A stretch of DNA of 64,000 nt from the IMG/VR virus record IMGVR_UViG_3300044620_001243; one strand, 5' to 3'. This document shows, piece after piece, positions 33,364 to 61,784 of this stretch (positions within the stretch are counted from its first letter, which is position 1; each line of letters opens with the position of its first letter). Under the pieces are notes generated by a model that was given only the letters and a program-made list of their open reading frames with translations, made no database searches and had not been told where the DNA came from. This DNA comes from a virus. Made by a program: the position numbers and the translations under genes.

Positions 33364-33773
33364 AATACTCAATTTACTTAGATGATGTGAGGACACCCAT
33401 TCCGGGTAATATAGACTGGATTGTTGTCAGAAGCTACGACGAGTTTGTGAGTAAAGTCACCCAAATCGGTCTTGACAACATAGACCTTATTTCCCTCGAC
33501 CATGACCTTGGCGACTCTGCTATGAAGGAGTGGCACACAAATGTCTATCACAACTACACGCTGGATTACAACAACATTACAGAAAAAACAGGTATGGACT
33601 GTGCAAAATGGTTGGTTAATCAGTGGCTGGACGGTGCTCCCGTGGTGAAAGTTATGGTTCATTCTGCAAACGCTATCGGCTCGGCTAATATGATGGGTTA
33701 CATCAACAATTACAAGCATGTGCATAGAATGATACAAGATTGCCAAAGGTGGGTAGTTCCACACACGGTTTGA
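33360..33773 (+). CDS. receiver-like domain protein of the type found next to RNA-repair genes
   Basis: IYLDDVR...W..VRSYDEF...ISLDHDLG pattern, recalled as a 'cyclic-phosphate processing receiver'-like domain (low certainty). Confidence 0.4.
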   Translation: MKYSIYLDDVRTPIPGNIDWIVVRSYDEFVSKVTQIGLDNIDLISLDHDLGDSAMKEWHTNVYHNYTLDYNNITEKTGMDCAKWLVNQWLDGAPVVKVMVHSANAIGSANMMGYINNYKHVHRMIQDCQRWVVPHTV

Positions 33774-33811
33774 TTTTTTGGGAATTTTTTTGTATGTTTG
33801 TGTAAAATGAA

Positions 33812-34021
33812 ATGATGAAAAAATTGTTGTTCCTGATATGTTTTTTCACAATCTCCTGCAATAATGAACGTCCGTGGCGAGTCATTGAGGTGAGACAAAA
33901 AAGTGAAATGTGTGAGTACGTTCTGAGCCGCAGTAACGGACTAGGTCCACAGTTAAAAGAAGTAATCGACACTTGTGGAAAATACCAATGGAATCAAGTA
34001 ATTCAAAACAAAGACCTATGA
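33812..34021 (+). CDS. small lipoprotein
   Basis: MMKKLLFLICFFTISC signal peptide plus lipobox. Confidence 0.5.
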   Translation: MMKKLLFLICFFTISCNNERPWRVIEVRQKSEMCEYVLSRSNGLGPQLKEVIDTCGKYQWNQVIQNKDL

Positions 34022-34446
34022 AACAATACTTAGAGTGGCTTGAAAAACAAATTGACTTTTATTTAGAGGATAAAACGATGCAAAGAGAACATTGGGCTTT
34101 TTGTAAGGCATACGAGAAGTTCAAAAGCCTTGAAACGACCGCTGAATCAGAAGAACTCACACCCTACATTGAATACTACTCCAACGGAAATGTATCTATT
34201 AAAGGACAATTGAACTCCAAAGGACAAGAAGAAGGTCTTTGGGAGTGGTTCTATCCAAACGGAAACATCGAATGGAGAACCCCATACAAGGAGGGTAAGA
34301 TGGATGGAATTGAGGAGCGGTTTGATAAACAAGGAAACATCAAATGGAGAATCCCATACAAAGAGGGAAGGAGGATGGGATTGAGGAGGAATTTGATGAA
34401 CGAGGAAACATCACCGAAACCCATATTTGGAAAGATGGAGAACTAA
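34018..34446 (+). CDS. MORN/YwqK-type repeat protein, frameshifted at its last repeat
   Basis: Repeats YYSNGN..G.W.WFYPNGNIEWRTPYKEGKMDGIEE; after about 34368 the conserved repeat continues in another frame (ending 34454). Confidence 0.55.
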   Translation: MKQYLEWLEKQIDFYLEDKTMQREHWAFCKAYEKFKSLETTAESEELTPYIEYYSNGNVSIKGQLNSKGQEEGLWEWFYPNGNIEWRTPYKEGKMDGIEERFDKQGNIKWRIPYKEGRRMGLRRNLMNEETSPKPIFGKMEN

Positions 34447-34470
34447 TTGAATAAACTAAACACTAAACCT

Positions 34471-34719
34471 ATGAAAGACGGACAAACAATCGGCCAATGG
34501 CTGAACTGGGACTTTGAGGACAATGGTAACCTTAATGTTAAAGACAAGAATGGCAATCTCATCTACCAAGAATCTCCAAGTGGCTTTTGGGATAGGCGCG
34601 AATTTAATTCGAATGGCTTTGTCATCTACTATGAAAATTCAGATGGTGTCATTACTGACAACCGCACTCCCGAAATCATCGAACACAACGGACGCAAATA
34701 CCAATTAATTCCTAACTAA
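34471..34719 (+). CDS. hypothetical protein
   Basis: 82 aa from ATG 34471 (track ORF starts at TTG 34447). Confidence 0.45.
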   Translation: MKDGQTIGQWLNWDFEDNGNLNVKDKNGNLIYQESPSGFWDRREFNSNGFVIYYENSDGVITDNRTPEIIEHNGRKYQLIPN

Positions 34720-34725
34720 AACAAA

Positions 34726-35382
34726 ATGAAACTAATTTTAGAAAAAGACCAAAGATTATTTTTTACTAGTGATACCCACTACAATCACTCTAATATTTGT
34801 AGGGCAACTACAAAATGGGAGGACAGTTATGATGCCACTCGTGATTTTAAATCTTTAAGTCACATGAACGACAGTATTGTTCAGAATATTAATGATTTGG
34901 TAAAAGAAAATGATGTTTTAATCCACATGGGAGATTGGTCATGGGGTGGATTTGAATATATTGAAGAATTTCGAAAAAGGATTGTTTGTAAAAACGTTCA
35001 CTTAGTTTTTGGAAACCATGATGAACATATTAAAAAAAATACAGAAAACATTCAAGATATATTCACATCAACTCATGATTATTTACATTTGGATGTTAGA
35101 CAACCTTCCTCAACCAACAAAGGGTCAGTAAATAAGTTTGAATTTATTTGTATGCACTATCCTATTGCTAGTTGGGATGGTTTGTACCACGGTACAATTC
35201 ATTTACATGGTCACACACATCTAACTCCTAACTCTAGAATTTCACAAGGAAAAGCAATGGATGTTGGTGTAGATGGTAACGAGTATAAACCTTTACTTAT
35301 GCAAGAGATTATTGTTATCATGGGAAATAGAGAAATAAATCACCTTTGTTTACCAAAAGACCGTAACGAAAAAAGAATTTGA
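34726..35382 (+). CDS. calcineurin-like metallophosphoesterase
   Basis: SDTHYNH, MGDWSWG, FGNHDEH, MHYP, LHGHTH motif series. Confidence 0.75.
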   Translation: MKLILEKDQRLFFTSDTHYNHSNICRATTKWEDSYDATRDFKSLSHMNDSIVQNINDLVKENDVLIHMGDWSWGGFEYIEEFRKRIVCKNVHLVFGNHDEHIKKNTENIQDIFTSTHDYLHLDVRQPSSTNKGSVNKFEFICMHYPIASWDGLYHGTIHLHGHTHLTPNSRISQGKAMDVGVDGNEYKPLLMQEIIVIMGNREINHLCLPKDRNEKRI

Positions 35383-35783
35383 AAATTATGAAAAATCTAA
35401 TATTATTAAGGGGTTTACCTGGTTCGGGAAAATCGACAGTCGCAAAAATGTTGGTCAACAAAGACTACTGTCATAAAGAAGCAGATATGTTTTTCGTCGA
35501 CAGAGAAGGCAACTATAAGTTCGAGCCGTCGAAAATCAAAGACGCACACGCTTGGTGCCAAGAAGAAGTTGAGTTCTTGTTGAGACTCGAACACACGCCG
35601 GTGGTTGTTTCCAACACATTCACACAAGAATGGGAGATGGAAGCTTATTATAAGTTGGCCAAAGATTACGGTTACACAGTTTTCTCATTGATTGTTGAAA
35701 ACCGACACGGCGGAAGGAATATTCACGGTGTTCCTGATGATAAGTTAGAAATTATGAAAAACAGATTTGAAATAAAATTATGA
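35379..35783 (+). CDS. P-loop polynucleotide-kinase-like kinase (PNK/N4BP2 clade)
   Basis: LLRGLPGSGKSTVAK Walker A, EADMFF, VVSNTFTQEWE; about 134 aa stand-alone kinase. Confidence 0.6.
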   Translation: MKIMKNLILLRGLPGSGKSTVAKMLVNKDYCHKEADMFFVDREGNYKFEPSKIKDAHAWCQEEVEFLLRLEHTPVVVSNTFTQEWEMEAYYKLAKDYGYTVFSLIVENRHGGRNIHGVPDDKLEIMKNRFEIKL

Positions 35784-41586: not shown

Positions 41587-41725
41587 AGTCAGATGGCGAA
41601 ATGTAGCCGCTATTTGGGTAAAACAGTTTAACACGAGACGCGAACCTCACACAAAGCCTGATAATAACCAAATGAAAGTGCGAAGTACAGTAACACTTAT
41701 ACGGGTTCGACTCCCGTTCTGACTG
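41587..41725 (+). ncRNA. tRNA-Leu-like shell RNA 1 (divergent copy)
   Basis: AGTCAGA-TG-GCGAAATGTAGCCGC ... ACGGG-TTCGACT-CCCGT-TCTGACT-G; 90-nt insert with ATTTGG/CCAAAT stem around 51 nt, plus AAGTG/CACTT arm. Confidence 0.55.
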
Positions 41726-43430: not shown

Positions 43431-44411
43431 ATGAAAACAAAAAAAACTCAATTTGTAAATCTTTATGACGTATACAAAATAATTTTTAGTGATGATAAAA
43501 CTAAATATATTGATATGTTGTCAAGAATTTCAACTAAAAGTATTGAAAACGTTGAATTAATCAACTTACGAGAACATTTACTATCGTATGGTATTGGCGT
43601 TGATGTTTTAGATAAAATGTCAAATGTTGATTTATTGTTTCTTCATTCTGTTATGGATGGGATATTTCGTTATCACATGAAACTTGATAAGCAAGAAATT
43701 CAAACCGTAAGGAAGTTTATTGAATACAATGAGAGAGGTTTAATTGCAAATAATGATGTGTCCACATATAAAGATTTTAAAGAATTAGAAGATTCTGTTA
43801 GAATTGCAAATCTCAAAAGTCTTGATAAAGAAATGAGTAAAGAAATAAAAGAAATTTATTCTGACGATGAATGGTTTGTTTTAAGACCACTCACCACTTT
43901 ATCTGGTGAAAAATATGGATACGGTACTAAATGGTGCACAACCATGAATTCTGAATATTTTTTAAGATATTCACGAAATGGTATTTTGATTTACATAATC
44001 AATACAAAGACAGGAAAAAAAGTTGCATGTCATTCCTCTTTGGTAGAAGAAAATTCTACTTCTTTTTGGAATGAAGCAGATAATAGGGTGGACTCGATTG
44101 ACACAAATTTACCCGATTTTATTCTTGAAAAATTAAGAGTTGAACTTAAAAGTGGGGTAGACAATTTCAGTTTTCTTTCTGAAGAAAAACAAAAAATTGA
44201 ATTAGATAAAATTCATATAACCCTTAAAGAAAGTCATGAAATTGTAGAAAATATGGCAATGGATGAAATAATGGGGGAGGATGAGATGATTCCGACTCCA
44301 ATAAATCTGCATGAAAATATACGAAGGATGATAAATGGTGGTGGGGTGACGGGATTAAGAGGAAATGAATACGAACCCACGGAACAGAGGGAAGAAATTA
44401 GTGAAGAATAA
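43431..44411 (+). CDS. hypothetical protein
   Basis: 326 aa; promoter 43400-43407 upstream; no motif recognised (GTKWCTT block noted). Confidence 0.55.
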   Translation: MKTKKTQFVNLYDVYKIIFSDDKTKYIDMLSRISTKSIENVELINLREHLLSYGIGVDVLDKMSNVDLLFLHSVMDGIFRYHMKLDKQEIQTVRKFIEYNERGLIANNDVSTYKDFKELEDSVRIANLKSLDKEMSKEIKEIYSDDEWFVLRPLTTLSGEKYGYGTKWCTTMNSEYFLRYSRNGILIYIINTKTGKKVACHSSLVEENSTSFWNEADNRVDSIDTNLPDFILEKLRVELKSGVDNFSFLSEEKQKIELDKIHITLKESHEIVENMAMDEIMGEDEMIPTPINLHENIRRMINGGGVTGLRGNEYEPTEQREEISEE

Positions 44412-44439
44412 GAAATACCACGGTTTATTGGATAAAATT

Positions 44440-44604
44440 ATGCAACCAAAAGAATCAAAAACAAATACCCATTTTCAATTAAGTTTGATAAAATCTCTTT
44501 TAAGGATATTAGGATGTATTTATCTATTCTTTGGGTGTACAAGTATGTTTGTAATTATTTTCATATTTGCAGAAATTCTTGGAATTTTAGAAGAAATTTT
44601 GTAG
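44440..44604 (+). CDS. small membrane protein
   Basis: 54 aa from ATG 44440; C-terminal TM helices. Confidence 0.35.
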   Translation: MQPKESKTNTHFQLSLIKSLLRILGCIYLFFGCTSMFVIIFIFAEILGILEEIL

Positions 44605-44628
44605 TTTGAATTTTTTTTCGTATATTTG
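44598..44628 (+). promoter_or_regulatory. Bacteroidota-type promoter at the head of the RNA array
   Basis: TTTG, 19 nt, TATATTTG; tRNA-Met starts at 44654. Confidence 0.55.
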
Positions 44629-44653
44629 TATTCTGAATATGAAAATAAACAAT

Positions 44654-44727
44654 AGCGGGGTGGTGGCAGATGGTAGCCCGCCAGGCTCATAACCTGGAGG
44701 TCGTAGGTTCGAGTCCTACCCCCGCAA
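44654..44727 (+). tRNA. tRNA-Met (CAU), initiator-like
   Basis: Hand-folded cloverleaf colinear with E. coli tRNA-fMet (AGCGGGG..CCAGG-CTCATAA-CCTGG-AGGTC-GTAGG-TTCGAGT-CCTAC-CCCCGCA-A); A1/A72 mismatch; one bulged U in the D stem; starts about 25 nt after the -7 box at 44621-44628. Confidence 0.75.
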
Positions 44728-44791
44728 CCGTATAGTTTTTGTTCTTTGACATCTTGGGAATTAAAAGTAAAAGTCGAGAGACTTAAAAATT

Positions 44792-44901
44792 AGTCAGGTG
44801 GCGGAATTGGTAGACGCAAGTGAGAATAGTAATTGCGCTGATGTAGCGGCAGATGCAGTAAGTTATTATTCATACAGGTTCGAGTCCTGTCCTGACTACC
44901 A
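44792..44901 (+). ncRNA. tRNA-Leu-like shell RNA 2
   Basis: Consensus ends (AGTCAGGTGGCGGAATTGGTAGACGC ... ACAGGTTCGAGTCCTGTCCTGACTACCA); 56-nt insert forms a rod GAATAGTAA/TTATTATTC + TTGC/GCAG + GCTG/CGGC; no 5-7-5 anticodon arm. Confidence 0.6.
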
Positions 44902-45008
44902 AAGAAACAAGTAAAACGCAAACGCACAGTCCCTTGATGCATCAGGTGAGGCGCACACTGTATACTGGATGACCTCTGTTTCTTTTTTAATCAGTCAGGT
45001 GGCGGAAT
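44871..45008 (+). repeat. 138-bp exact duplication, copy 1 (T arm + acceptor + spacer + next 5' half)
   Basis: Identical by eye to 45339-45476. Confidence 0.8.
44902..44992 (+). ncRNA. structured 91-nt spacer RNA candidate (copy 1 of 2)
   Basis: AAAGAAACA (from 44901, sharing the terminal A of the preceding CCA)/TGTTTCTTT 9-bp closing stem, internal ACAGT/ACTGT and GAGG/CCTC pairings, palindrome TGATGCATCA; identical copy at 45370-45460. Confidence 0.3.
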
Positions 45009-45101
45009 TGGATAGACGCATTGAGGAATCTAAACTTGGTAGCATTTGTTAGATTTAATAGTAATCCTCCTTCCTTACAGGTTCGACTCCTGTCCTGACT
45101 A
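44993..45101 (+). ncRNA. tRNA-Leu-like shell RNA 3
   Basis: Consensus ends; 57-nt insert with GAGGA/TCCTC and ATCTAA/TTAGAT stems. Confidence 0.6.
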
Positions 45102-45267
45102 CGACAGTTAGCAGATAATACTTGGTAGTTCTTGTAACGTCTGACTATGCGTGAGGTGGTTTTATAACTTTCCACCAGCTGGTCCAAAACTAAAAGTTAA
45201 TACAGGTTTAATAACGGGGTGAAGGAAAGTCTAACTAACAAGTACTTCACTACCTACTGTAAAAATT

Positions 45268-45369
45268 AGTCAGGTGACGAAATTGGTAGACGTGCCACGA
45301 ATAAAACTAAGTGGTGGAGAAACAGCTTTCAGGCACTCCATACAGGTTCGAGTCCTGTCCTGACTACCA
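45268..45369 (+). ncRNA. tRNA-Leu-like shell RNA 4
   Basis: Ends AGTCAGGTGACGAAATTGGTAGACGT ... CCTGACTACCA; 48-nt insert with CCAC/GTGG and GGAG/CTCC hairpins. Confidence 0.6.
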
Positions 45370-45476
45370 AAGAAACAAGTAAAACGCAAACGCACAGTCC
45401 CTTGATGCATCAGGTGAGGCGCACACTGTATACTGGATGACCTCTGTTTCTTTTTTAATCAGTCAGGTGGCGGAAT
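45339..45476 (+). repeat. 138-bp exact duplication, copy 2
   Basis: Identical by eye to 44871-45008; offset 468 bp. Confidence 0.8.
45370..45460 (+). ncRNA. structured 91-nt spacer RNA candidate (copy 2 of 2)
   Basis: Identical to 44902-44992. Confidence 0.3.
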
Positions 45477-45558
45477 GGTAGACGCACTGGACAGGCGATG
45501 CATTTAAAACAGAAATAAGCCCAGTCGGTACTTACAGGTTCGAATCCTGTCCTGACTA
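45461..45558 (+). ncRNA. tRNA-Leu-like shell RNA 5
   Basis: Consensus ends; 48-nt insert with ACTGG/CCAGT + GGC/GCC around a 22-nt loop. Confidence 0.6.
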
Positions 45559-45926
45559 CAAATCTTAGGAGTAATTAACCTAAGACTGAGAGGTTCGAAA
45601 CTCTCGATTGGCTATGGTGTAATGGGCACAGAGAAACGGAGTACGAAAGGGGTTACGGGAATTTTCCCGCAAACATCAGAAACGGGACTCAGGATTATGG
45701 TTCGAATCCATATTAGTCAACAAGCCGTCTTTTTTTCTTGTCCGCCGTGGACGTGGATTGTTGAGACGTAAAAGTAACAATCGATTGATTAGAGAACGGT
45801 AGGATACAGGTTCACTAGACGAAGGTAGAAGTTTTTTTTTGATAGATGGGTTTGAGTTCTTTATAACAACAAACCAACTATAATTCAGTAGGGACAAATG
45901 GGAGCGGCTTACTCCAGTCCCGAAAT

Positions 45927-46085
45927 AGTCAGGTGGCGGAATTGGTAGACGCTATGAAATCATGTTTTAAGATTGAACGGGTAGGCAGACGTAACATATA
46001 GGTAAAAGAGTGTTATCGCCGAATACACTTATAAGGGTCCTATGAAAAAACTTCAATCATACAGGTTCAAGTCCTGTCCTGACTA
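45927..46085 (+). ncRNA. tRNA-Leu-like shell RNA 6 (largest insert)
   Basis: Consensus ends (T loop TTCAAGT); 108-nt insert with GATTGAA/TTCAATC closing stem and nested helices. Confidence 0.55.
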
Positions 46086-46328
46086 CACGTTCCGAAACAG
46101 ACAACGGATAGTTCCACTATGAACGATGAGAAACAGGGTGATGTCCTGTATTAGTTATCGCCTCCCGAATGCGGTCGGGATAGGTTGACCACCTAAACAT
46201 CAGCAATGTGAACGGTCTATTTCTAACTCACCTACGTTTGTAAGACAACATAGAAGTGACGAGACGGGAAACTCGTCGTGAGGACATCCAAGACACCTGT
46301 AAGTTGGATAAATTAGGGTGTTATTTTT

Positions 46329-46451
46329 AGTCAGGTGTGGGTAAAAATGCGCTAACTGGAAACCCACTGAAAGCGAAAGCAAAGTCGAGGTCTAAATGCG
46401 CACTATGGCCGAGGTAATGGCGAGATACAGGTTCAAGTCCTGTCCTGACTA
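46329..46451 (+). ncRNA. tRNA-Leu-like shell RNA 7 (D arm replaced)
   Basis: AGTCAGG-TG, then GTGGGT/ACCCAC hairpin instead of the D arm, GC-GAAA-GC hairpin, consensus T arm and CCTGACT-A. Confidence 0.5.
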
Positions 46452-46596
46452 CAAAGACAATGGTTTTCCCCATTCAACGGATGTCGACAATCCAGAATGG
46501 AATCGGAATTCAGCACCCTCAGCCGAGGCGCCTCGTAAAACTACGATTAAGCTGTTAAGATTGGAGCGAGACGGGTACTCCATCATTGTCTTATTT

Positions 46597-46668
46597 GGTC
46601 GGTTCATCTAGAGGTTAGGATACAAGATTTTCATTCTTGTCACATGGGTTCGATTCCCATACCGACTA
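46597..46668 (+). tRNA. tRNA-Glu (UUC)
   Basis: GGTCGGT/ACCGACT acceptor, D arm ATCT-AGAGGTTA-GGAT, anticodon arm CAAGA-TTTTCAT-TCTTG, T arm ATGGG-TTCGATT-CCCAT, A73. Confidence 0.85.
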
Positions 46669-46843
46669 CCTTGGAGGTATAGGGGTAAACCCTTGAGGCG
46701 AAGTACAAGCCATAGTCACTGAACTTAAACTGACCTCCAACCAAATTAGAAGTGTCGCAATACGCGTTTCAATCTAATTGATAGACGTATCAATGAAGAT
46801 GTTCGAGGGTGAAAATCCCAAGCTTCTAATCCTCCATTCTTAG

Positions 46844-46938
46844 TGTTATGTGGTTAAAACACGTTAACTCTTACATCGCCTGATTAGCGCTAATCCGAAT
46901 GTAAGACGAGTAAGTTGGTTCGAATCCAACAGAATGGA
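46844..46938 (+). ncRNA. tRNA-like RNA of a second lineage with rod-like anticodon arm
   Basis: Acceptor CCATTCT/AGAATGG (7 bp), D arm GTGT-TATGTGGTTAAA-ACAC, T arm GTTGG-TTCGAAT-CCAAC, A73; 50-nt rod TTACAT/ATGTAA + palindrome GATTAGCGCTAATC. Confidence 0.55.
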
Positions 46939-47216
46939 CAATGAGTAAGAGATACTCAGAGTCTTTGGTCTAAGACTTAAACAATAGACTCGCAGAATGT
47001 CTACGGCGTGAGTGGGACATCATGGGAACAAAGAAGAGTCACACACCTTCTCCCAGTAGTGTTGACAGGTTTTTATGTGGTAAGACACTAATGAAAAAGA
47101 CTCGTTCTATGGGGTACTTATCTGGAGTATCAAACAAGTGTGAGTGATATGGTTCTCGAACAGACAGAGAAACCCGTTAAAATCTACCCGTCTGGAATCT
47201 CAGGATGGGGAAACAT

Positions 47217-47319
47217 AGTCAGGTGGCGGAGTGGGCTAACGCTAACTTGGAAGAGTCTGAGGAGTGGTAACCAAGTACCTATACTCTGATGACCGCAGGT
47301 TCGAATCCTGTCCTGACTA
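47217..47319 (+). ncRNA. tRNA-Leu-like shell RNA 8
   Basis: AGTCAGG-TG-GCGGAGTGGGCTAACGC ... GCAGG-TTCGAAT-CCTGT-CCTGACT-A; 52-nt insert with ACTTGG/CCAAGT stem; loop AGAGT complementary to downstream ACTCT. Confidence 0.6.
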
Positions 47320-47337
47320 CAAAAATAAATTAAAATT

Positions 47338-47598
47338 ATGTTTATAGAAAGATTTTTTAACCCCTATGTGTCATCTCACGAAAGGGTATTATATGAGAAT
47401 AAAGAAGCAATTGAACATTGTTTGAAATATCATACATGGATTAGACATTATTCATTTGAAGGTGATGAATATATCAAAAATGTTAATGGTAAATTAGTTT
47501 GGAATGATGGTAGTAAAGTTGATAAAAGAAAATTACCTAAAAAAGGAAAAGGATGGGGCAGATATTCAAGTGAACTTTATAATTTGTGTTCTTTTTAA
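47338..47598 (+). CDS. hypothetical protein (cassette between tRNA-like elements)
   Basis: 86 aa ORF starting 18 nt after element 47217-47319 and ending 7 nt before element 47606. Confidence 0.5.
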   Translation: MFIERFFNPYVSSHERVLYENKEAIEHCLKYHTWIRHYSFEGDEYIKNVNGKLVWNDGSKVDKRKLPKKGKGWGRYSSELYNLCSF

Positions 47599-47605
47599 AT
47601 TAAAT

Positions 47606-47751
47606 AGTCAGGTGGCGGAATTGGTTAGACGCTGTAAAAGTAAGATATGGGAATTGTGCACTCGGTAAACCTACGCACAAGGCTTAGATAGTTGTGCAAC
47701 AGCGGAAAGTCTTACAAAACTATCTTACAGGTTCGAATCCTGTCCTGACTG
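47606..47751 (+). ncRNA. tRNA-Leu-like shell RNA 9
   Basis: Consensus ends (G73); 94-nt insert with AAGATA/TATCTT and TTGTGC/GCACAA stems. Confidence 0.55.
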
Positions 47752-47764
47752 CAAAATTAAAGAT

Positions 47765-47908
47765 ATGTTTAGAACATTAAATTATATTTGGAAATTGTTT
47801 TGGAAAAGACCTAGTAGAAGAGTATTTTTTATATTTTTTAGAATGCTAAAAACGGAAATTAAGTGTTTAATGTTGACTGGATACTCAACAGATGAATTAC
47901 TAAATTAG
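47765..47908 (+). CDS. hypothetical small protein (cassette between tRNA-like elements)
   Basis: 47-codon ORF found by eye; its TAG stop overlaps the first 2 nt of element 47907. Confidence 0.3.
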   Translation: MFRTLNYIWKLFWKRPSRRVFFIFFRMLKTEIKCLMLTGYSTDELLN

Positions 47909-48033
47909 TCAGGTGGCGGAATTGGTAGACGCACGATTTATTGTTTAACGATGTGGCTCAATGTCCTAATGGATGAGAGAAAATAAACAGAGAAATATAC
48001 CACATACAGGTTCGAATCCTGTCCTGACTACCA
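47907..48033 (+). ncRNA. tRNA-Leu-like shell RNA 10
   Basis: Consensus ends with encoded CCA; 73-nt insert with crossing complementarities TTTATT/AATAAA and ATGTGG/CCACAT. Confidence 0.6.
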
Positions 48034-48085
48034 AGTTAACCCACTAAGACTAGAAACGGGTGACACCTCGGAAAGACGAGGACAT

Positions 48086-48170
48086 AGTCAGGTGGCGGAA
48101 TGGATAGACGCGGCCCTATCAGGGGTAGAGGCGAAAGAAACTCATACAGGTTCGAATCCTGTCCTGACTA
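48086..48170 (+). ncRNA. tRNA-Leu-like shell RNA 11 (tRNA-sized, non-canonical anticodon loop)
   Basis: 85 nt; best arm CCCTA-TCAGGGG-TAGAG has a C/A mismatch and C at position 33; looks like a damaged Leu(CAG) loop. Confidence 0.5.
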
Positions 48171-48278
48171 CACAGTGTTGGCTTCAAGGACCTATTAGGG
48201 AAGTACACTTAAATAAAACAAGAACGGGGAAAACACCGAATCTGCAGATAACGGCGAAGTACCAACGAAAGGTGAAAC

Positions 48279-48352
48279 GACCTCATAGCTTAATTGGTAA
48301 AGCACCTGGCTTTTAACCAGGGGAGTCCAGAGTTCGAGTCTCGGTGGGGTCA
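48279..48352 (+). tRNA. tRNA-Lys (UUU)
   Basis: GACCTCA/TGGGGTC acceptor, D arm GCTT-AATTGGTA-AAGC, anticodon arm CCTGG-CTTTTAA-CCAGG, T loop TTCGAGT, A73. Confidence 0.8.
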
Positions 48353-48517
48353 CAAAGGTTGATTGGGGAATGATGGTGACAAAGACTTGAGAGTTTATGC
48401 CGGTCGTTACCATCGGAGTTGGGAGGTATAAACCTAAGCAATGCCAATCGTAAAAGGAGTTGTCCACTCGACCATCTTCTCCTTTCCTTTTTTTTAAAAA
48501 AATTCTTAAAGACACAT

Positions 48518-48549
48518 TTTGGTTTTATCATTTTACTTTTGTATATTTT
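48518..48549 (+). promoter_or_regulatory. Bacteroidota-type promoter
   Basis: TTTG, 20 nt, TATATTTT. Confidence 0.4.
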
Positions 48550-48553
48550 ACAT

Positions 48554-48820
48554 ATGAAAAACATAATAAACATAAGAAAAGTTGTATCTCAACTAACTCA
48601 AGAATATCTCTTTTTTAAAGAGGCATTTGAATCAGACGTGGATTCTGAAACTATGGAAAACACCAAAACGATTATGGATGATTTTGAAGATTTCGTTGAT
48701 GCATATTTGGATGAAAACGATGTTGATGATACGATAACAGACGATGAGATTTTAGATGATTGGATTGAAAAAAATGAGAGGTCAATGTATAAAAAGTTGA
48801 ATCGAAACGATATCAATTAA
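48554..48820 (+). CDS. acidic protein
   Basis: 88 aa from ATG 48554 downstream of promoter 48518-48549; D/E-rich. Confidence 0.45.
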   Translation: MKNIINIRKVVSQLTQEYLFFKEAFESDVDSETMENTKTIMDDFEDFVDAYLDENDVDDTITDDEILDDWIEKNERSMYKKLNRNDIN

Positions 48821-49001: not shown

Positions 49002-50435
49002 ATGTGTGAATTTTTACCAAAAAGAATGGGTTATAAGTTAGAATTACTTAAAAGTGCGTTAAGTATTGATGGGGTTGAATCAATAGATAATGTGATAAAT
49101 TGGATTTTACTTCAAAATAAATCAACACATATTTCTGTAAATCGTGTTGATTTAATGTCACTTAAAAATTGGTTTTTTTCAAATGACATTCAAAACATAT
49201 ATCATAAAACTGGTAAATTTTTTTCTATTGATGGAATAACAGTTAAAACTAATTGGGGAACTATTAATGAATGGGACCAACCCATTATTAACCAACCTGA
49301 AATAGGGTTTTTAGGGTTTATCACACAAGAAATAAATGGGGTTTTACATTTCTTATTACAAGCTAAGATTGAACCAGGAAACGTAAATTATGTGCAATTA
49401 TCCCCAACTTTACAAGCCACACGTAGTAATTACACTCAAATTCATAGAGGAAATAAACCTTTTTTTCTTGAATATTTTTTAAATGTTAAATCAGAAAACA
49501 TTCTTTTTGACCAGTTACAATCTGAACAAGGTGCTCGTTTTTTGCGAAAACGAAACAGAAACATTATTATTAAAGTTGACGAACCAATAAAGCCACCTTC
49601 TAATTTTATGTGGTTAACTTTAGGTCAACTCAAACTATTAATGAAGATGTCTAATATCGTAAATATGGATACAAGAACAGTAATTTCTGGTATTTTATTT
49701 GACGGTCTTTCTCAATTTAATTATGAACAAATCATGAATGAAAAAGGAATAGTTCCTTCTGATTTGGGTGTTTCATTTTTTAAATCTGCAATTCTTAATG
49801 AAGGGTCTCTTCATAGTATTGAAGAGATAATTACATTTTTAACTAAACACAAAAGTTTTTTTGAAATTTTTATTGAACGAATACCACTTACTCATTTACG
49901 TAAATGGGAAGTCAAATCAGACGAGATTGTACGTCCTGATAATAAATATTTTAAAATTATTGGTGTAAATGTTGAAATTGATAATCGAGAAGTATCTAAT
50001 TGGGACCAACCGATGTTAATGCCATTGCAAGAAGGTATTTGTGCCATGATTGTTAAAAACATAAATGGTGTAATGCATTTTTTAATGTTAGCAAAATTAG
50101 AGTGTGGTAATCATGATATTATTGAATTTGCACCAACTATTCAACACACATCAACTGGCAATGATTTGTCATCTAATTGTCCACCATTTTTAAATTATGT
50201 GCTTGAATCCAATGAAAAACAAATAATTTACGACACTTATCAATCAGAAGAAGGTGGTAGATTTTATCGAGAACAAAATAGGTATCTAATTGTCCTCGCA
50301 GATGAAGATTTTAAAAACGAAGTGCCTGAAAATTATATTTGGATGACATTGTATCAAATTCAAGTTTTTTTAAAATTTAACAATTATATTAATATACAGG
50401 CACGTAGTCTTATCGCGGCTATTTCTTATTTATGA
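49002..50435 (+). CDS. NDP-hexose 2,3-dehydratase
   Basis: 477 aa with two internal repeats of the hexose-dehydratase domain (WDQP...G.L......G...FL.QAK.EPGN; second copy WDQPML...HFLMLAKLECGN; GGRF). Confidence 0.7.
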   Translation: MCEFLPKRMGYKLELLKSALSIDGVESIDNVINWILLQNKSTHISVNRVDLMSLKNWFFSNDIQNIYHKTGKFFSIDGITVKTNWGTINEWDQPIINQPEIGFLGFITQEINGVLHFLLQAKIEPGNVNYVQLSPTLQATRSNYTQIHRGNKPFFLEYFLNVKSENILFDQLQSEQGARFLRKRNRNIIIKVDEPIKPPSNFMWLTLGQLKLLMKMSNIVNMDTRTVISGILFDGLSQFNYEQIMNEKGIVPSDLGVSFFKSAILNEGSLHSIEEIITFLTKHKSFFEIFIERIPLTHLRKWEVKSDEIVRPDNKYFKIIGVNVEIDNREVSNWDQPMLMPLQEGICAMIVKNINGVMHFLMLAKLECGNHDIIEFAPTIQHTSTGNDLSSNCPPFLNYVLESNEKQIIYDTYQSEEGGRFYREQNRYLIVLADEDFKNEVPENYIWMTLYQIQVFLKFNNYINIQARSLIAAISYL

Positions 50436-51418
50436 AAAAACGTTTTGTTGTTGGTATCATGGGTTGTGCAAGTATTGCTGAGAGAATGATGATTCCGGCA
50501 ATACAAAATAGTTTGTATTTTGATTTAAAATTAATAGCGAGTAGGTCTCAATCAAAAGCAAAACAATTTGCTCAAAAGTTTAATATTGAGGCGGTAGTTG
50601 GTTATGAGAATTTATTAAACAATCCAAATATAGAAGTCATATATATGCCTCTCCCAACTGGTCTTCATTTAGAATGGGCAATAAAAACATTAAATGCGGG
50701 AAAACATTTACTTATAGAAAAATCATTAGCAAATAATTACGAAGAAACTAAAACGATAGTATCTTTAGCAAAAAAGAAAGGACTTCTTGTTATGGAAAAT
50801 TTTATGTTTCAGTATCACAGTCAGATGGGTGAATTAAGTAAATTATTAGATTCACATGTAATAGGTGATATTCGTTCTGTACATATTAGTTTTGGATTCC
50901 CACCATTCAAAGATTCCTCTAATATTCGTTACTCTCATGAGCTTGGGGGTGGGTCGTTACTTGATGCGGGGTCATATACATTGAAAATCGCTCAATTATT
51001 ACCTGTAGGTAAATTAAAAATTCAAGGAGCCAGTTTAGTTCAATCAAGAACCCATGGTGTTGATATTTCAGGAGAATGTTTTCTAACTACTAATCAAGGT
51101 ATAGGAATACACACTTCTTTTGGATTTCAACACTATTATCAGTGTAAATTAGAAATATGGGGTAGTCAAGGTAAAATCATCGCTCATCGTATTTTTACCG
51201 CTGGTCCGAATGTGATTCCTAAAATTGAAGTTGAAACAGAAAAAAAAACCATTCAAATATCTACTTCCGCAGATAATCACTTTATAAATCTATTGTCTCA
51301 TTTTGGAAATTGCTTACAACAAATGGATTTTATTGAGTCTGAATATCAATTACTTTTACAACAATCGTATTTATTGGAGGAATTAAGGTTAAAAGCCGAA
51401 ATTTTTTATCAAAATTGA
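50432..51418 (+). CDS. Gfo/Idh/MocA-family oxidoreductase (likely NDP-3-keto-deoxysugar reductase)
   Basis: N-terminal Rossmann fold GIMGCASIAERMMIPA, EKS motif (LIEKSLA); ATGA-coupled to the 2,3-dehydratase. Confidence 0.65.
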   Translation: MKKRFVVGIMGCASIAERMMIPAIQNSLYFDLKLIASRSQSKAKQFAQKFNIEAVVGYENLLNNPNIEVIYMPLPTGLHLEWAIKTLNAGKHLLIEKSLANNYEETKTIVSLAKKKGLLVMENFMFQYHSQMGELSKLLDSHVIGDIRSVHISFGFPPFKDSSNIRYSHELGGGSLLDAGSYTLKIAQLLPVGKLKIQGASLVQSRTHGVDISGECFLTTNQGIGIHTSFGFQHYYQCKLEIWGSQGKIIAHRIFTAGPNVIPKIEVETEKKTIQISTSADNHFINLLSHFGNCLQQMDFIESEYQLLLQQSYLLEELRLKAEIFYQN

Positions 51419-53524: not shown

Positions 53525-54256
53525 ATGGATAAAGATAAATTAAAAAATATCATTACCAGAATTGGTCAAATAAATCCAAAATATGAATTGGAAAATATTC
53601 TGCCTCAATCGCCAAAATTAATTAAATTAATGCCTAAATTAATTCAACTCATGGGTGACCCATTAGAAGATGCTCAATTGGCTGCAGTTAAAAAAGATGG
53701 TTTAACAATCGAATATATCGTTAAAGGTGGAATCACCCCATCAGAAGATGTTCAATTGGCTGCAGTTAACGAAAATGGTTATGCAATCCAATATATCATT
53801 AATGGTGGAATCGTCCCATCAGAAGGTGTTCAATTGGCTGCAGTTAACAAAAAGGGTTATGCAATCTCAAATATCATTAAAGGTGGAATCGTCCCATCAG
53901 AAGATGTTCAATTGGCCGCAGTTAACGAAGAGGGTTATGCAATAGGATATATCATTGATGGTGGAATCGTCCCATCAGAAGGTGTTCAATTGGCCGCAGT
54001 TAATAATAATGGTTATGCAATCCAACATATCATTAATGGTGGAATCGTTCCATCAGAAGGTGTTCAATTGGCCGCAGTTAACAAAAAGGGTTTATCAATC
54101 GAATATATCATTGATGCCGGAATCATTCCATCAGAAGATGTTCAATTTGGAGCAGTTAATTATAATGGTTTATCAATCCAATATATCATTGATGCTGGAA
54201 TCACCCCATCAGAACGTGTAAAAGAACTTGCTCGTTCCAAGGGTGTTCAAATATAA
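53525..54256 (+). CDS. DUF4116-like repeat protein, paralog 1 of 3
   Basis: Seven roughly 30-aa repeats GGI.PSEDVQLAAVN.NGYAIQYII; shared N- and C-termini with the next two genes. Confidence 0.6.
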   Translation: MDKDKLKNIITRIGQINPKYELENILPQSPKLIKLMPKLIQLMGDPLEDAQLAAVKKDGLTIEYIVKGGITPSEDVQLAAVNENGYAIQYIINGGIVPSEGVQLAAVNKKGYAISNIIKGGIVPSEDVQLAAVNEEGYAIGYIIDGGIVPSEGVQLAAVNNNGYAIQHIINGGIVPSEGVQLAAVNKKGLSIEYIIDAGIIPSEDVQFGAVNYNGLSIQYIIDAGITPSERVKELARSKGVQI

Positions 54257-54261
54257 ATAAC

Positions 54262-54897
54262 ATGGATAAAGATAAATTAAAAAATATCATTACCAGAATT
54301 GGTCAAATAAATCCAAAATATGAATTGGAAAATATTCTGCCCCAATCACCAAAATTAATTCAATTCATGGATAATCCATCAGAAGATGTTCAATTGGCCG
54401 CAGTTAAAAAAGATGGTTTAACAATCTATTATATCATTGAAGCCGGAATCGTCCCATCTGAAGATGTTCAATTGGCTGCAGTTAATAATAATGGTTCATC
54501 AATCTATCAAATCATATATGATGCTGGAATCACCCCATCAGAAGATGTTCAATTGGTTGCAGTTAAAAAAGTGGGCGACTTAATCTATGATATCATTAAA
54601 GTCGGAATAACCCCATCAGAAGATGTTCAATTGGCTGCGGTTAATAATAATGGTTCATCAATAGGATATATCATTAACGGTGGAATCACCCCATCAGAAG
54701 ATGTTCAATTGGCCGCTGCTAATCAAAATGGTAGGGTAATCCAATATATCATTAAAGCTGGAATCACCCCATCAGAAGATGTTCAATTGGCCGCAGTTAA
54801 TAATAATGGTTATGCAATCCAACATATCATTAACGCCCGAATCACCCCATCAGAACGTGTAAAAGAACTTGCTCGTTCCAAGGGTGTTAATATATAA
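54262..54897 (+). CDS. DUF4116-like repeat protein, paralog 2 of 3
   Basis: Same architecture; N-terminus MDKDKLKNIITRIGQINPKYELENI identical. Confidence 0.6.
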   Translation: MDKDKLKNIITRIGQINPKYELENILPQSPKLIQFMDNPSEDVQLAAVKKDGLTIYYIIEAGIVPSEDVQLAAVNNNGSSIYQIIYDAGITPSEDVQLVAVKKVGDLIYDIIKVGITPSEDVQLAAVNNNGSSIGYIINGGITPSEDVQLAAANQNGRVIQYIIKAGITPSEDVQLAAVNNNGYAIQHIINARITPSERVKELARSKGVNI

Positions 54898-54902
54898 GTT
54901 AT

Positions 54903-55616
54903 ATGGATAAAGATAAATTAAAAAATATCATTACCAGAATTGGTCAAATAAATCCAAAATATGAATTGGAAAATATTGTGCAGCAAGCGCCACAATTAAT
55001 TCAATTCATGGATAATCCATCTGAAGAAATTCAATTGGCCGCGGTTGAAAAAGATGGTAAATATATAAAAAATATTATTGAAAGTGGAATCAAACCATCA
55101 GAAGATGTTCAATGGACAGCTGTTAATCAAGGTGGTCAGTCACTTTATTTTATCCTTGAAGCCGGAATCGTCCCATCTGAAGATGTTCAGTTGGCAGCGG
55201 TTAGAAGTAGAGGTTCGGCAATCCAATTTATCATTGAAGCTGGAATCATTCCATCAGAAGATGTTCAATGGTTTGCGGTTAACGAAAATGGTTATGTAAT
55301 CCAAGATATCATTGATGCCGGAATCACCCCATCAGAACGTGTTCAATTGGCCACAGTTAATTATAATGGTTTGTTAATCAAATATATCATTGATGTCGGA
55401 ATCACCCCATCAGAACGTGTTCAATTGGCTGCTGTTAATCAAAATGGTTTGTCAATCAAAGATATCATTGAAGCCGGAATCGTCCCATCTGAAGATGTTC
55501 AGTTGACTGCAGTTAGAAGTAGAGGTTCGGCAATCCAATTTATCATTTATAATGGTGGAATCAAACCATCAGAACGTGTAAAAGAACTTGCTCGTTCCAA
55601 GGGTATTAATATATAA
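54903..55616 (+). CDS. DUF4116-like repeat protein, paralog 3 of 3
   Basis: Same architecture; C-terminus PSERVKELARSKG.NI shared. Confidence 0.6.
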   Translation: MDKDKLKNIITRIGQINPKYELENIVQQAPQLIQFMDNPSEEIQLAAVEKDGKYIKNIIESGIKPSEDVQWTAVNQGGQSLYFILEAGIVPSEDVQLAAVRSRGSAIQFIIEAGIIPSEDVQWFAVNENGYVIQDIIDAGITPSERVQLATVNYNGLLIKYIIDVGITPSERVQLAAVNQNGLSIKDIIEAGIVPSEDVQLTAVRSRGSAIQFIIYNGGIKPSERVKELARSKGINI

Positions 55617-55621
55617 ATAAC

Positions 55622-56194
55622 ATGGAAAAAAATCTAAATGAAGAGATTTCAAGAATAAAATCAATAATCAATTTTATGAATGAAAATGAATTGCCCAAAA
55701 ATTCTGGAGACTTAATAAGGATGTTACCTGAAAAGTTAAAAGAATTATTTTTCAATCAATGGAAAGCAAAACAAAACCCAAAATGGCACCCCGAAGGTAA
55801 CACATTGAAACATATTCTTGTTGTAATTAAAAGGGCTTATCATTATTATCCTGATGACCCCAATATGATTATGGCGGCGTTGTTTCATGATTTGGGGAAA
55901 ATTGATACATACAACATTAACCCAAAAACGGGGGAACCAACTGCGTATGGTCATGAGAACAAGTCAGTGCAATATGTGGAAGAATTCAAAGATTGGATTC
56001 AGAGTTTTGAGGGAACGAACGTGGAAGAGATTAAATATTTGGTTAAAAACCATATGAAGGTAAAACCATCCACATGGGACTCAATGAGGGATATTAAGAA
56101 AGAACCGATACAATCACACCCCGCATTTGATAAATTAATGGGTTTTACAAGTAAATTGGATGGTGGGGGGATTAATTTGGAAAAAAATATTTAA
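55622..56194 (+). CDS. HD-domain phosphohydrolase (CCA-enzyme HD-domain-like)
   Basis: NPKWHPEGNTLKH and LFHDLGK (H...HD) resemble the HD domain of bacterial CCA-adding enzymes. Confidence 0.6.
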   Translation: MEKNLNEEISRIKSIINFMNENELPKNSGDLIRMLPEKLKELFFNQWKAKQNPKWHPEGNTLKHILVVIKRAYHYYPDDPNMIMAALFHDLGKIDTYNINPKTGEPTAYGHENKSVQYVEEFKDWIQSFEGTNVEEIKYLVKNHMKVKPSTWDSMRDIKKEPIQSHPAFDKLMGFTSKLDGGGINLEKNI

Positions 56195-56830: not shown

Positions 56831-57448
56831 ATGCAAAAAGTTATTTTCTTGGATATTGATGGGGTAATGAACTCACATATTTTCTATGAACAAAGGCATA
56901 GAAAAAGATGGTTGAAATGGAGAACTTATTATTTTTTGATTAGAAGATTTTTGGGGATTAAATCCAAATCCGTGAGTCTTGCTAACCACAAAACACCCAA
57001 ATCCCATTGCACATACCAACACCAATTTAAAAGATTAAAAGAAGAGACTTGTCAGCAAAAATGGAAATGGCTTGCTAATTTCTGCAACGAGACTGGAACT
57101 AAAATTTGTGTATCATCTGTGTGGAGATTTCATTTTGGAAATGAAGAATCGGTTATACCCCTGTGGTGGGAACGAGCACTGATTGATTTGGGTTTCAACG
57201 AAGGAACATTTGTTGGTATCACCGACAGATTGGGAATGAGAGGAGAAGAAATCAAGGATTGGCTTCAAAAAAATCAGGAAGTTCAGGAATATGCAATTTT
57301 AGATGATGACTCTGATATGCTACCTGAACAGATGGATAAATTTTATCATTGTGATGGATATTTTGGTCTTTCTCCCAATCACTTATATCGTATCCAAAGA
57401 GCCTTCTCGGGTAAAAGTAAATATGGACATTTGAATAAAACCGTATAA
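56831..57448 (+). CDS. HAD-like phosphatase (recalls the HAD domains of 'Swiss-army-knife' RNA-repair proteins)
   Basis: VIFLDIDGVMNS motif I; ILDDDSD motif near the C-terminus. Confidence 0.45.
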   Translation: MQKVIFLDIDGVMNSHIFYEQRHRKRWLKWRTYYFLIRRFLGIKSKSVSLANHKTPKSHCTYQHQFKRLKEETCQQKWKWLANFCNETGTKICVSSVWRFHFGNEESVIPLWWERALIDLGFNEGTFVGITDRLGMRGEEIKDWLQKNQEVQEYAILDDDSDMLPEQMDKFYHCDGYFGLSPNHLYRIQRAFSGKSKYGHLNKTV

Positions 57449-61411: not shown

Positions 61412-61501
61412 AGTCAGGTGGTGGAATTGGTTAGACCGTCCCCTCCCTTAAGTGGAAGGGGGAGACCGAAAGGTATACAGGTTCGAATCCTGTCCTGACT
61501 A
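61412..61501 (+). tRNA. tRNA-Leu (UAA), type II; the most intact member of the AGTCAGG shell family
   Basis: Family acceptor and T arms; anticodon arm CCTCC-CTTAAGT-GGAAG (one C/A mismatch; U33, UAA, G37); variable arm ACC-GAAA-GGT. Confidence 0.5.
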
Positions 61502-61518
61502 CTAAAAATTAAAGAATT

Positions 61519-61680
61519 ATGAAAATAAAAGTACACTTATTAAGTCAATCTAAACCGATTGAATATGAGGATGTGAAAAACGCATACACAAAAAGCGGTT
61601 TGTATTGTGTCTATCTAAAAAACAATCAAGTACACAAATACCCTTTGTGTAATGTATTTAGAATTGAAGAAGATTATTAA
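61519..61680 (+). CDS. hypothetical small protein (cassette)
   Basis: 53-codon ORF found by eye between elements 61412-61501 and 61686-61768. Confidence 0.35.
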   Translation: MKIKVHLLSQSKPIEYEDVKNAYTKSGLYCVYLKNNQVHKYPLCNVFRIEEDY

Positions 61681-61685
61681 AACAT

Positions 61686-61768
61686 AGTCAGGTGGCGAAA
61701 TTGGATAGACGCTAGGGAAACCTTCCCGAGAATGAAAGTTCATATAGGTTCGAGTCCTGTCCTGACAA
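61686..61768 (+). ncRNA. tRNA-Leu-like shell RNA 13 (tRNA-sized)
   Basis: 83 nt; A1/A72 mismatch (CCTGACA); centre folds as GGGAA-ACC-TTCCC, not a 7-nt anticodon loop. Confidence 0.5.
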
Positions 61769-61784
61769 CTAAAAATTAAAGAAT

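Follow-up and report, generated by a model that had tools for sequence, protein, structure and literature searches.

The 64,000 nucleotides of IMG/VR virus record IMGVR_UViG_3300044620_001243 (this whole stretch is referred to as the window) carry at positions 46834-46938 of the plus strand a tRNA-shaped non-coding element of 105 nt, which was delimited by reading the sequence and by a scan for T arms with a matching acceptor strand. The element represents a new non-coding RNA family without a match among Rfam families, cultured phages and cellular genomes, and the way its relatives vary makes it very probable that it is a selected, structured RNA of the plus strand. Our reading, to which we assign a probability of roughly 0.55, is that the element would be a gene for a stable, non-decoding RNA with the shape of a tRNA, transcribed with the tRNA array of the phage, matured by tRNA enzymes, unable to decode, and bearing a rod that would present an invariant bulged core at a fixed distance from the tRNA-like body.

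The body has the parts of a tRNA. Its acceptor stem joins CCATTCT (46834-46840, columns 1-7 of the family alignment) to AGAATGG (46931-46937) with seven out of seven pairs and is followed by the discriminator A73 at 46938 (3' side 46931-46938) and the trailer CAA. An earlier note on this DNA had described the same perfect 7-bp acceptor, an own D arm, a consensus T arm and A73, all of which are present; the start it gave, 46844, has to be moved 10 nt lower, to 46834, and its end at 46938 is correct. After a TA that separates the acceptor strand from the D stem comes the D arm (46843-46862), predicted by RNAalifold with the stem GTGT/ACAC (46843-46846 / 46859-46862), a possible fifth pair U14-A25 and a 12-nt loop whose GG is kept in 30 of 31 sequences. 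Among the core nucleotides, U8 and an A before the 3' D strand are present; position 14 is U, with an A one position later. The T arm GTTGG-TTCGAAT-CCAAC (46914-46930) has a consensus loop. Between the D and T arms lies a central segment of 51 nt which forms a rod of about 20 bp and, as had been noted before, neither a 7-nt anticodon loop nor a separate variable arm.

Read from the body outwards, this rod consists of the junction NNURA, C35 paired with G75 next to the bulged C/U74, a helix of 8 bp, the invariant core and the tip. The 5' junction with C35 (46863-46868), in which U32, A34 and C35 are invariant or nearly so, has five nucleotides after the D stem where a tRNA has the single position 26. 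The helix is formed by the 5' strand UCUUACAU (46869-46876, columns 36-43), which pairs with 46899-46906, and by the 3' strand AUGUAAGA (columns 66-73; 46899-46907 with the bulged C74), as seen both by covariation and by RNAalifold. The 5' side of the core (46877-46881) holds the clamp nucleotides C44 and G45 and the bulged C46, C47 and U48; its 3' side (46896-46898), assigned from the alignment and covariation scoring, holds C63, G64 and the bulged A65 within an invariant CCGAA. In between stands the 14-nt self-complementary tip GATTAGCGCTAATC (46882-46895, columns 49-62), which as a monomer would form a 5-bp helix with a GCGC loop. The rod is followed by GAGUAA (46908-46913, columns 75-80), which the second search pattern imposed and which is invariant also in the first, unbiased set of homologues, and of which G75 pairs with C35 and AGUAA stands where a variable loop would be. 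The fold goes far beyond chance; taken alone, the window copy folds with z = -2.8. No open reading frame (ORF) covers the element, the sole overlap being a 25-aa ORF on the minus strand.

Homologues were collected by three exact-pattern scans, of which the first (T arm and 3' acceptor strand) returned 6 viral contigs, the second (GAGTAAG and T arm, the rod being left free) 15 viral contigs, and the third, a gapped pattern with the rod core fixed and the T arm, acceptor and tip free, added 4 viral and 34 metagenome contigs. Many of the metagenome records carry Joint Genome Institute (JGI; Ga-prefixed) sample identifiers. Three matches to the gapped pattern, L137, L138 and L141, were discarded as GC-rich coding sequence. 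The family comprises 52 viral and metagenomic loci with 32 distinct sequences; invariance of the rod core was judged on 15 loci only, the later loci having had the core imposed by the search pattern. A search with the family covariance model recovered the window copy at 115.5 bits (E ~1e-26).

The long contigs that bear homologues measure 36-195 kb and have 23-24 tRNAs each, and the family occurs within a clade of large, uncultured phages (about 135-195 kb; G+C about 30%). Contigs that bear the element include IMGVR_UViG_3300044729_002678 (161.6 kb), 3300042561_002062 (149.5 kb) and 3300042197_002234 (195.5 kb). The host of this clade is probably a member of the Bacteroidota, put here as freshwater ones, because the nearest isolates by helicase (about 37% identity) are large phages of Bacteroides, Flavobacterium and Chryseobacterium. 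GenBank phages (50,697 records, queried by megablast with a 5-kb block and by blastn with the element and the main chassis described below) gave no match, and scans of 185,579 species-representative genomes for the rod core, and separately for the T arm with the acceptor, gave zero matches each. Rfam searches at the gathering threshold over the window, and at E<=10 over 44-49 kb, locus L005 and the module of locus L012 (see below), returned only ordinary tRNAs and noise, and a description of the family was not found in the literature on natural phage tRNA-scaffolded RNAs or on tRNA-like RNAs with altered anticodon arms.

Two explicit structures, the register of the earlier note and an alternative, were scored on the homologue alignments. 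The helices of the alternative register are the acceptor (1-7/98-104), the D stem (10-13/26-29), C35-G75, the rod stem (36-43/66-73), C44-G64, G45-C63, the tip (49-62) and the T stem (81-85/93-97). In this register 99.7-99.9% of the pair-cells are paired, 12-13 pairs have changed on both sides and the covariation score comes to 0.39-0.41; after a shift of the partners by 1-3 columns the score is no higher than 0.155. In one of the scorings the figures are 99.9% paired cells (34-50% after the shift), 13 pairs and 0.39 (no more than 0.13 after the shift). RNAalifold arrives at the identical architecture when no structure is given to it (11 double-change pairs). Over the 31 short-form sequences the 1054 pair-cells divide into 987 Watson-Crick pairs, 65 G.U pairs and 2 mismatches. 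Compensatory changes occur in four helices, namely the acceptor (4-101 alternates between CG and UA, and pair 1-104 is CG or U.G), the T stem (82-96, UA to CG and back), the rod stem and the tip; in the rod stem seven of the eight pairs covary and the sequence is rewritten between clades (CUCUUACA / CCUUUGUG / CCUCUAUA and others).

Because the pair-cells are almost all paired and pairs have changed on both sides, the element is read as a selected RNA rather than as a decayed tRNA, and the suggestion made earlier of a functional design over random decay is borne out by the 52 loci and the compensatory changes in the four helices. The constraint acts on the plus-strand transcript and not on duplex DNA or an antisense RNA, since the 65 G.U cells would read C.A on the complementary strand. 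The description of the rod itself had to be revised. The lower register TTA-CTC/GAG-TAA proposed for it proved inferior, its 36-76 pair being lost in 6 of 10 homologues, and the register backed by covariation is UCUUACAU/AUGUAAGA (36-43/66-73) with C44-G64 and G45-C63, the last two of which can pair in every sequence. Nor is the rod continuous as had been stated, for invariant bulges interrupt it at 46879-46881 (CCU), 46898 (A) and 46907 (C/U).

In the core of the rod, U43-C44-G45-C46-C47-U48-G49 faces C62-C63-G64-A65-A66, so as to form a CG/GC clamp of two pairs, from which an A bulges out on the 3' side and CCU on the 5' side. Across the 15 loci obtained with the T-arm pattern, in which the core was free to vary, UCGCCUG...CCGAA stays the same, and the adjoining stem is wholly rewritten. 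The chances that the core is a protein-recognition site are about even. In an informal comparison by eye, none of the K-turn, loop E/sarcin-ricin, signal recognition particle (SRP) domain IV and hammerhead motifs fits it.

The rod and its tip are not repeated elsewhere in the window. A search for the palindrome and for the 43-nt rod with up to 3 mismatches found only the element itself, the family covariance model found no second copy in the window and a single orthologue in 120 independent loci (1.1 Mb of phage DNA), and in the same independently fetched DNA the rod of the element was never seen on a main-family chassis. The idea, raised earlier, of a hairpin that inserts itself into anticodon loops is contradicted by this single occurrence of rod and palindrome in the window and by the lack of a second copy for the covariance model, and changes of the tip arise in situ through covariation and not through copy and paste.

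The tip differs among relatives and keeps one property. There are 14 distinct 12-nt tips, all of which pair 6+6 if G.U is allowed, the central four nucleotides included, and the central tetranucleotides are of five kinds (GCGC, UGCA, UGCG, GUAC and UGUA). The cores of the palindromes vary as well (AGCGCT, AGTACT, CTGCAG, GGTACC and TTGCAA), two of the tip variants being AUUAGCGCUAAU and GUACUGCAGUAU. The 14-nt palindrome that had been reported is present and perfect at 46882-46895; as a family trait its perfection does not stand, being confined to the window and L175, with one to three G.U pairs in most relatives. Among main-family RNAs of the same phages, 3 of 63 comparable predicted tetraloops (4.8%) are self-complementary, and the proportion expected from theory is 14%. 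A monomeric hairpin needs a loop, and a self-complementary loop brings the monomer no gain. Pairing between the tips of two molecules would be the simplest explanation, and with it dimerisation is tentatively proposed because the centre of the tip stays self-complementary although the monomer hairpin needs no such loop. Palindromic pairing drives documented natural RNA homodimers (PMC12990946; see also PMC12286853).

The place of the tip can also be taken by something else. At L005, which comes from a phage with 98% identity to the window in the neighbourhood of the element, an unrelated structured RNA of 142 nt replaces an 11-nt tip; the 5' half as far as ...CGCCUGG has stayed the same, as has the 3' half from CCGAAUG... 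onwards. The base of the insert (GGAG/CUCC) extends the rod helix, and the module lies on the reverse strand, at 1121-1262 of the reverse complement. A free-standing relative of this module, with 84% identity, stands between two main-family units in L008, L009, L012 (at 2010-2138) and L015; the module is about 130-142 nt long, shows compensatory changes (GCUGUAU/AUAUAGC to GUUGCAU/AUGUAAC and the reverse) and has no match in Rfam. Since both placements are seen, one module could be delivered in two ways, as a spacer freed by flanking tRNA-type cuts or embedded in the rod. The tip is a tolerated insertion slot and the body with its rod can act as a carrier, as shown once, in L005; the other 51 of the 52 loci carry the short tip only.

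The surroundings of the element suggest how it would be matured. It belongs to a non-coding block at 44.6-48.4 kb that is packed with tRNAs and tRNA-like units, in a window that is AT-rich (about 28-40% G+C) and whose substantial ORFs are all on the plus strand. ARAGORN calls six tRNAs in the window and misses the element; the Rfam tRNA model, at the gathering threshold and at E<=10, adds several long 'tRNAs' of 98-124 nt and misses it too. The gap between the upstream tRNA or tRNA-like unit and position +1 is 1-5 nt in most genomes, and the following unit begins 4-6 nt downstream of A73; the trailer of the element is CAA or CAG, like that of genuine array tRNAs, CCA not being encoded except in L014. 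Because the body is intact and the spacing within the array is that of tRNAs, the element is likely to be matured as a tRNA is, by tRNA-processing enzymes. The block 46424-46988, which comprises a tRNA-Glu, a spacer and the element, is 96-98% identical among relatives, in an array that is otherwise a mosaic of cassettes: a comparison of window positions 44000-48600 with L001, L003-L006, L025 and L142 showed 45934-46423, 46989-47192 and 47330-47727 to be present or absent among phages otherwise 86-98% identical.

Other tRNA-like units form a main family with a tRNA-Leu-like body, AGTCAGG-TG-GCGGAATTGGTAGACGC ... ACAGGTTCGAATCCTGT-CCTGACT-A, of which the T-arm and acceptor scan found about 15 units on the plus strand of the window (41587-41725; ten units in 44792-48170; four units in 61412-63028). 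Their central inserts, of about 25-110 nt, are unrelated to each other. The fetched loci contain 298 main-family units (250 distinct), which yield 189 insert clusters; non-orthologous units share 86.5% identity in the chassis and 41%, the random level, in the inserts, and this array of constant chassis and hyperdiverse cargo is probably the larger story. The element, which is single-copy and of one conserved rod design, shares with the main family only universal tRNA features, and no close relative of its backbone was found among the 708 ARAGORN-called tRNAs of related loci, which agrees with the earlier statement that its backbone is independent of the AGTCAGG...CCTGACT family. Among the 185,579 species genomes no cellular tRNA has the T arm and acceptor of the element. 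The accompanying idea that a normal anticodon arm was 'replaced' is unproven, because no parent tRNA can be identified.

From these elements a mechanism can be proposed. The element would be transcribed together with the phage tRNA array, whereupon RNase P would cut at +1 and 3' trimming and CCA addition would follow after A73, the body of acceptor, T arm and D arm being presumably what the maturation enzymes recognise. The product cannot decode, as the anticodon loop is absent, and the 8-bp spacer helix, free in sequence, would set the invariant bulged core, the putative site of a protein partner, at a fixed distance from the body. The 12-14-nt tips of two molecules might then pair, which would give a symmetric dumbbell that has tRNA-like heads on both sides, and exchange of the tip for another structured RNA, as in L005, would turn body and rod into a carrier. 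More speculatively, the RNA might serve as decoy or adaptor for some tRNA-body-binding factor, in a conflict between phage and host over tRNAs, a role that we consider possible and rather doubtful. Combined into a single picture, which as a whole seems unlikely, tRNA bodies would be a natural chassis system for a repertoire of non-coding RNAs, with processing enzymes splitting a long transcript into tRNAs, chassis-borne RNAs and free spacers; the element would be the one conserved member able to self-assemble, a dumbbell whose tRNA heads lie about 45 bp apart and which offers two bulged sites to a dimeric host or phage factor, for instance by trapping a tRNA-targeting defence protein or bridging RNA-repair enzymes. 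To our knowledge, a dimerising tRNA mimic of this kind has so far not been described.

Several observations weigh against these proposals. The independent events at the tip centre are few (about 4-5) and some of the steps can pass through G.U intermediates; given so few events, the statistics of the self-complementary tip are good evidence, not overwhelming. Cofolding speaks for the dimer, giving it a ddG of -16.4, compared with -2.5 for a control with a GAAA loop, hence about 14 kcal/mol extra, a figure that ignores concentration and the cost of unfolding the hairpins. L005 has no palindromic tip, which means that at least one phage must manage without dimerisation. As the D stem and the clamp show no variation, their pairing, though strongly conserved, receives no confirmation from covariation, and the invariance of the core is partly circular, as the later search patterns fixed the core and only the first 15 loci test it. 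Finally, scans for sigma-70 promoters and for terminators were uninformative, with results at or below chance; promoters of the Bacteroidota type lie outside their models.

Other explanations were considered alongside. The element might be a carrier and nothing else, its body and rod forming a processing and stability chassis, the palindromic tip an 'empty' cap and the core a docking stem. Such a role fits L005, where the slot holds the 142-nt RNA with body and rod core unaltered, fits the adjoining main family with its constant chassis and unrelated inserts (86.5% vs 41%; 189 clusters for 250 units), and fits engineered tRNA scaffolds, which with a replaced anticodon arm are processed and stable in E. 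coli (PMC3753655). It is nevertheless rather improbable: the 'empty' short form is the norm, at 51 of 52 loci, and is itself conserved, and a passive docking stem needs neither invariant bulges nor a self-complementary loop. The element could also be a Y-RNA-like partner of a Ro60/Rsr (TROVE) protein, that is, a circularly permuted analogue of YrlA with its termini at the acceptor end. YrlA RNAs join T and D arms to a long helix and occur in phages, and their Ro-contact motif GNCGAA(N)G resembles the vertebrate GGUCCGA (PMC4201824); the 3' strand of the rod reads (A/G)(U/C)CCGAA in the direction from tip to body, as expected after permutation. The resemblance in tRNA-like domain, bulged helix and CCGAA strand is attractive (PMC4201824, PMC7824862). 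On closer comparison, though, all 31 sequences have U or C instead of the first G of GNCGAA and 16 of the 31 lack its trailing G, the topology differs, with the helix closed by the tip, the acceptor open and neighbours 1-6 nt away, and no Rfam YrlA or Y_RNA model matches the element at E<=10, the sole YrlA match in the block being a weak one elsewhere (45047-45149, E=3.1). Nor was a TROVE domain found in Pfam scans of 50 of the 63 window ORFs of at least 120 aa, which covered all plus-strand ORFs above 145 aa, the other 13 being seven on the minus strand (including an antisense one of 410 aa at 13991-15223) and six of 126-145 aa on the plus strand. Since part of the genome lies outside the window scanned, this explanation is kept at a low probability.

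The element might further be a real tRNA with an intron or insert in its anticodon arm, removed by an endonuclease together with the phage kinase, phosphatase and ligase so as to leave a decoding tRNA. A complete healing-and-sealing set is encoded, a protein with DUF4116 repeats has a faint Sen15 match, and the intron mode of ARAGORN calls the window copy a tRNA-Lys(ctt) with a 9-nt intron. The same mode, however, is silent in 19 of 32 members and gives the other 13 five anticodons (Val, Ile, Pyl, Lys and Thr) at varied positions inside a covarying stem, and in an exhaustive excision search no member yields a canonical anticodon arm by a single excision (the target being position 26, 5 bp, a 7-nt loop Y-U-NNN-R-N, 5 bp and a variable loop of 4-5 nt). 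A bulge-helix-bulge has two 3-nt bulges separated by 4 bp, and the bulges here, of 3 nt and 1 nt and 2 bp apart, do not form one. A group I intron would be far longer than the insert of about 50 nt, which has no Rfam intron match, and with 23-24 tRNAs the related phages already have near-complete sets. The intron-containing tRNA was rejected on the inconsistency of the intron mode and the lack of a workable excision, and its probability is put as negligible. The same holds for a decaying tRNA pseudogene that acquired a mobile palindromic hairpin. The silence of ARAGORN and of the Rfam tRNA model and the high fluidity of the surrounding array would suit decay; against it stand the 2 mismatches in 1054 pair-cells, the compensatory changes in four helices and the location of the element in a block that is among the best conserved of the array, and the mobile hairpin was rejected for want of further copies in the window, with one orthologue in the 120 independent loci. 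It is likewise very improbable that the palindrome acts in DNA, whether as a cruciform, as the binding site of a dimeric protein or in recombination or attachment, or that it is the by-product of template-switch 'quasipalindrome correction'. The palindrome of the window is perfect over 14 bp and the junctions of L005 fall exactly at the edges of the tip, which speaks for such accounts; DNA binding and quasipalindrome correction are argued against because the palindromes differ wholly in sequence among relatives, leaving no conserved sequence-specific site, and are often imperfect in DNA, with one to three of seven positions G.U in most members where templated repair would give Watson-Crick symmetry.

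The array holds further features next to the element. The spacers on its two sides (46669-46833 and 46939-47216) contain several small hairpins, for example GGAGGT...ACCTCC at 46672-46740 and GAGTA-AGAGA-TACTC at 46943-46957; the parts that adjoin the element are 96-98% conserved in close relatives and the outer downstream part is missing in some. The spacers may hold further small RNAs freed by the flanking tRNA-type cuts. A consensus T arm that stands orphaned at 45696-45720 (TATGG-TTCGAAT-CCATA, with TTAGTCA-A after it) has no 5' acceptor half with seven out of seven pairs within 230 nt upstream, and both Rfam and ARAGORN are silent on it; it may be a further non-canonical unit or a remnant. 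Two of the ARAGORN calls, the 84-nt 'tRNA-Gly(acc)' at 61686-61769, which the Rfam tRNA model misses, and the 86-nt 'tRNA-Pro(agg)' at 48086-48171, which is a main-family chassis unit, have anticodon assignments that look spurious.

Pfam scans of window ORFs identified several other genes. An Rnl1-type RNA ligase (32068-33363), a cyclic-phosphate-processing receiver domain (cREC_REC, 33360-33773), a metallophosphoesterase (34726-35382) and a P-loop kinase (AAA_33, 35379-35783) make up an RNA healing-and-sealing cassette at 32068-35783; an HD-domain protein (55622-56194) and a 'Swiss Army Knife RNA repair' HAD domain (56831-57448) lie farther downstream, and at 8527-9099 there is a Tad3, an inhibitor of Type I Thoeris (PF25185, E=6e-38). 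Phage tRNAs and RNA repair have been discussed together as counter-measures against attacks of the host on tRNA (PMC7824862), and the element is placed in a tRNA-centred conflict because the tRNA array, the RNA-repair cassette and the Thoeris inhibitor co-occur, which is circumstantial. Three tandem paralogues with DUF4116 repeats occupy 53525-55616; the Sen15 match mentioned above belongs to the one at 54262-54897 (E=1.7e-6, no single stretch passing) and is probably a repeat artefact, though notable so close to tRNA-like arrays. Between the tRNA-like clusters there are also sugar-nucleotide genes (49002-51418 and 28489-29289), encoding an NDP-hexose 2,3-dehydratase, a GFO/IDH/MocA oxidoreductase and a family-2 glycosyltransferase, which could serve the glycosylation of DNA or of the surface.

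The tRNA arrays of phages are normally read as a supply of codons or as replacements for tRNAs cut by the host. The family described here indicates that such arrays also carry conserved tRNA look-alikes that are unable to decode, and its structural support is unusually strong for an RNA of 105 nt. Should the element be a decoy or adaptor in a tRNA-centred arms race, it would stand for a new class of RNA-based counter-defence, and should it dimerise, it would be a small and tractable natural case of palindrome-driven RNA assembly. A natural tRNA scaffold could moreover guide the design of RNA expression. The family also adds a candidate to the 50-year-old question of the small non-tRNA RNAs in tRNA clusters, such as RNAC and RNAD of phage T4.

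Several known systems resemble the element in part; it does not belong to the tRNAs, to YrlA, to tmRNA or to any Rfam family. With canonical tRNA (RF00005) it shares the 7-bp acceptor with discriminator, the 5-bp T stem and a T loop UUCRANY, and both stems covary; it lacks the 5-bp anticodon stem with its 7-nt loop, has instead 5-6 nt and then the rod of about 20 bp, and is below the Rfam gathering score, absent at E<=10 and uncalled by ARAGORN. In transfer-messenger RNA (tmRNA), too, a long helix substitutes for the anticodon arm beside an acceptor stem and a T arm, in a molecule that does not decode in the usual sense, but tmRNA has no D stem and possesses G3.U70, pseudoknots and a tag reading frame, whereas the element has A3-U70 and a D stem, and an ARAGORN search of the window found no tmRNA. 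YrlA (RF02553; PMC4201824) is similar in being non-decoding, in its T and D arms, acceptor-like stem and long bulged helix in the place of the anticodon arm, in being recognised by tRNA enzymes, in occurring in some phages, in its ties to RNA repair and decay and in a conserved strand containing CGAA; it differs in that its 5' and 3' termini both sit at the distal end of the helix and its 'acceptor' is closed into a hairpin, while the element ends at the acceptor and its helix is closed.

As regards genomic setting alone, the element can be likened to RNAC and RNAD of T4, small non-tRNA RNAs within a phage tRNA cluster whose role is still unknown (PMC3014915, PMC9697503); a relationship in sequence is not expected, and T4 has two of them where the phage studied here has the element and about 15 chassis units. 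These chassis units lie in the same array and on the same strand, with a replaced anticodon and variable-arm region and tRNA-like spacing, but have another backbone, about 15 copies and hyperdiverse inserts in contrast to the one rod design of the single-copy element. Engineered tRNA scaffolds (PMC3753655) likewise replace the anticodon arm by a foreign RNA and rely on the body for processing and stability, and the L005 variant with its 142-nt RNA in the tip is their natural equivalent; they are man-made, however, and what the element normally carries as 'cargo' is a rod that is conserved, invariant in its bulges and self-complementary at its tip, which points to a function of the rod itself. 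In the palindrome-mediated RNA homodimers and phage-associated RNA homo-oligomers HYER1/5, GOLLD, ROOL and OLE (PMC12990946, PMC12286853) self-complementary segments drive symmetric assembly, as may be the case here, but these RNAs are much larger and not tRNA-shaped. Measured against these systems, the new features of the family are a bulged, conserved rod on a tRNA body with an open acceptor, a loop that is kept self-complementary and a demonstrated insertion slot.

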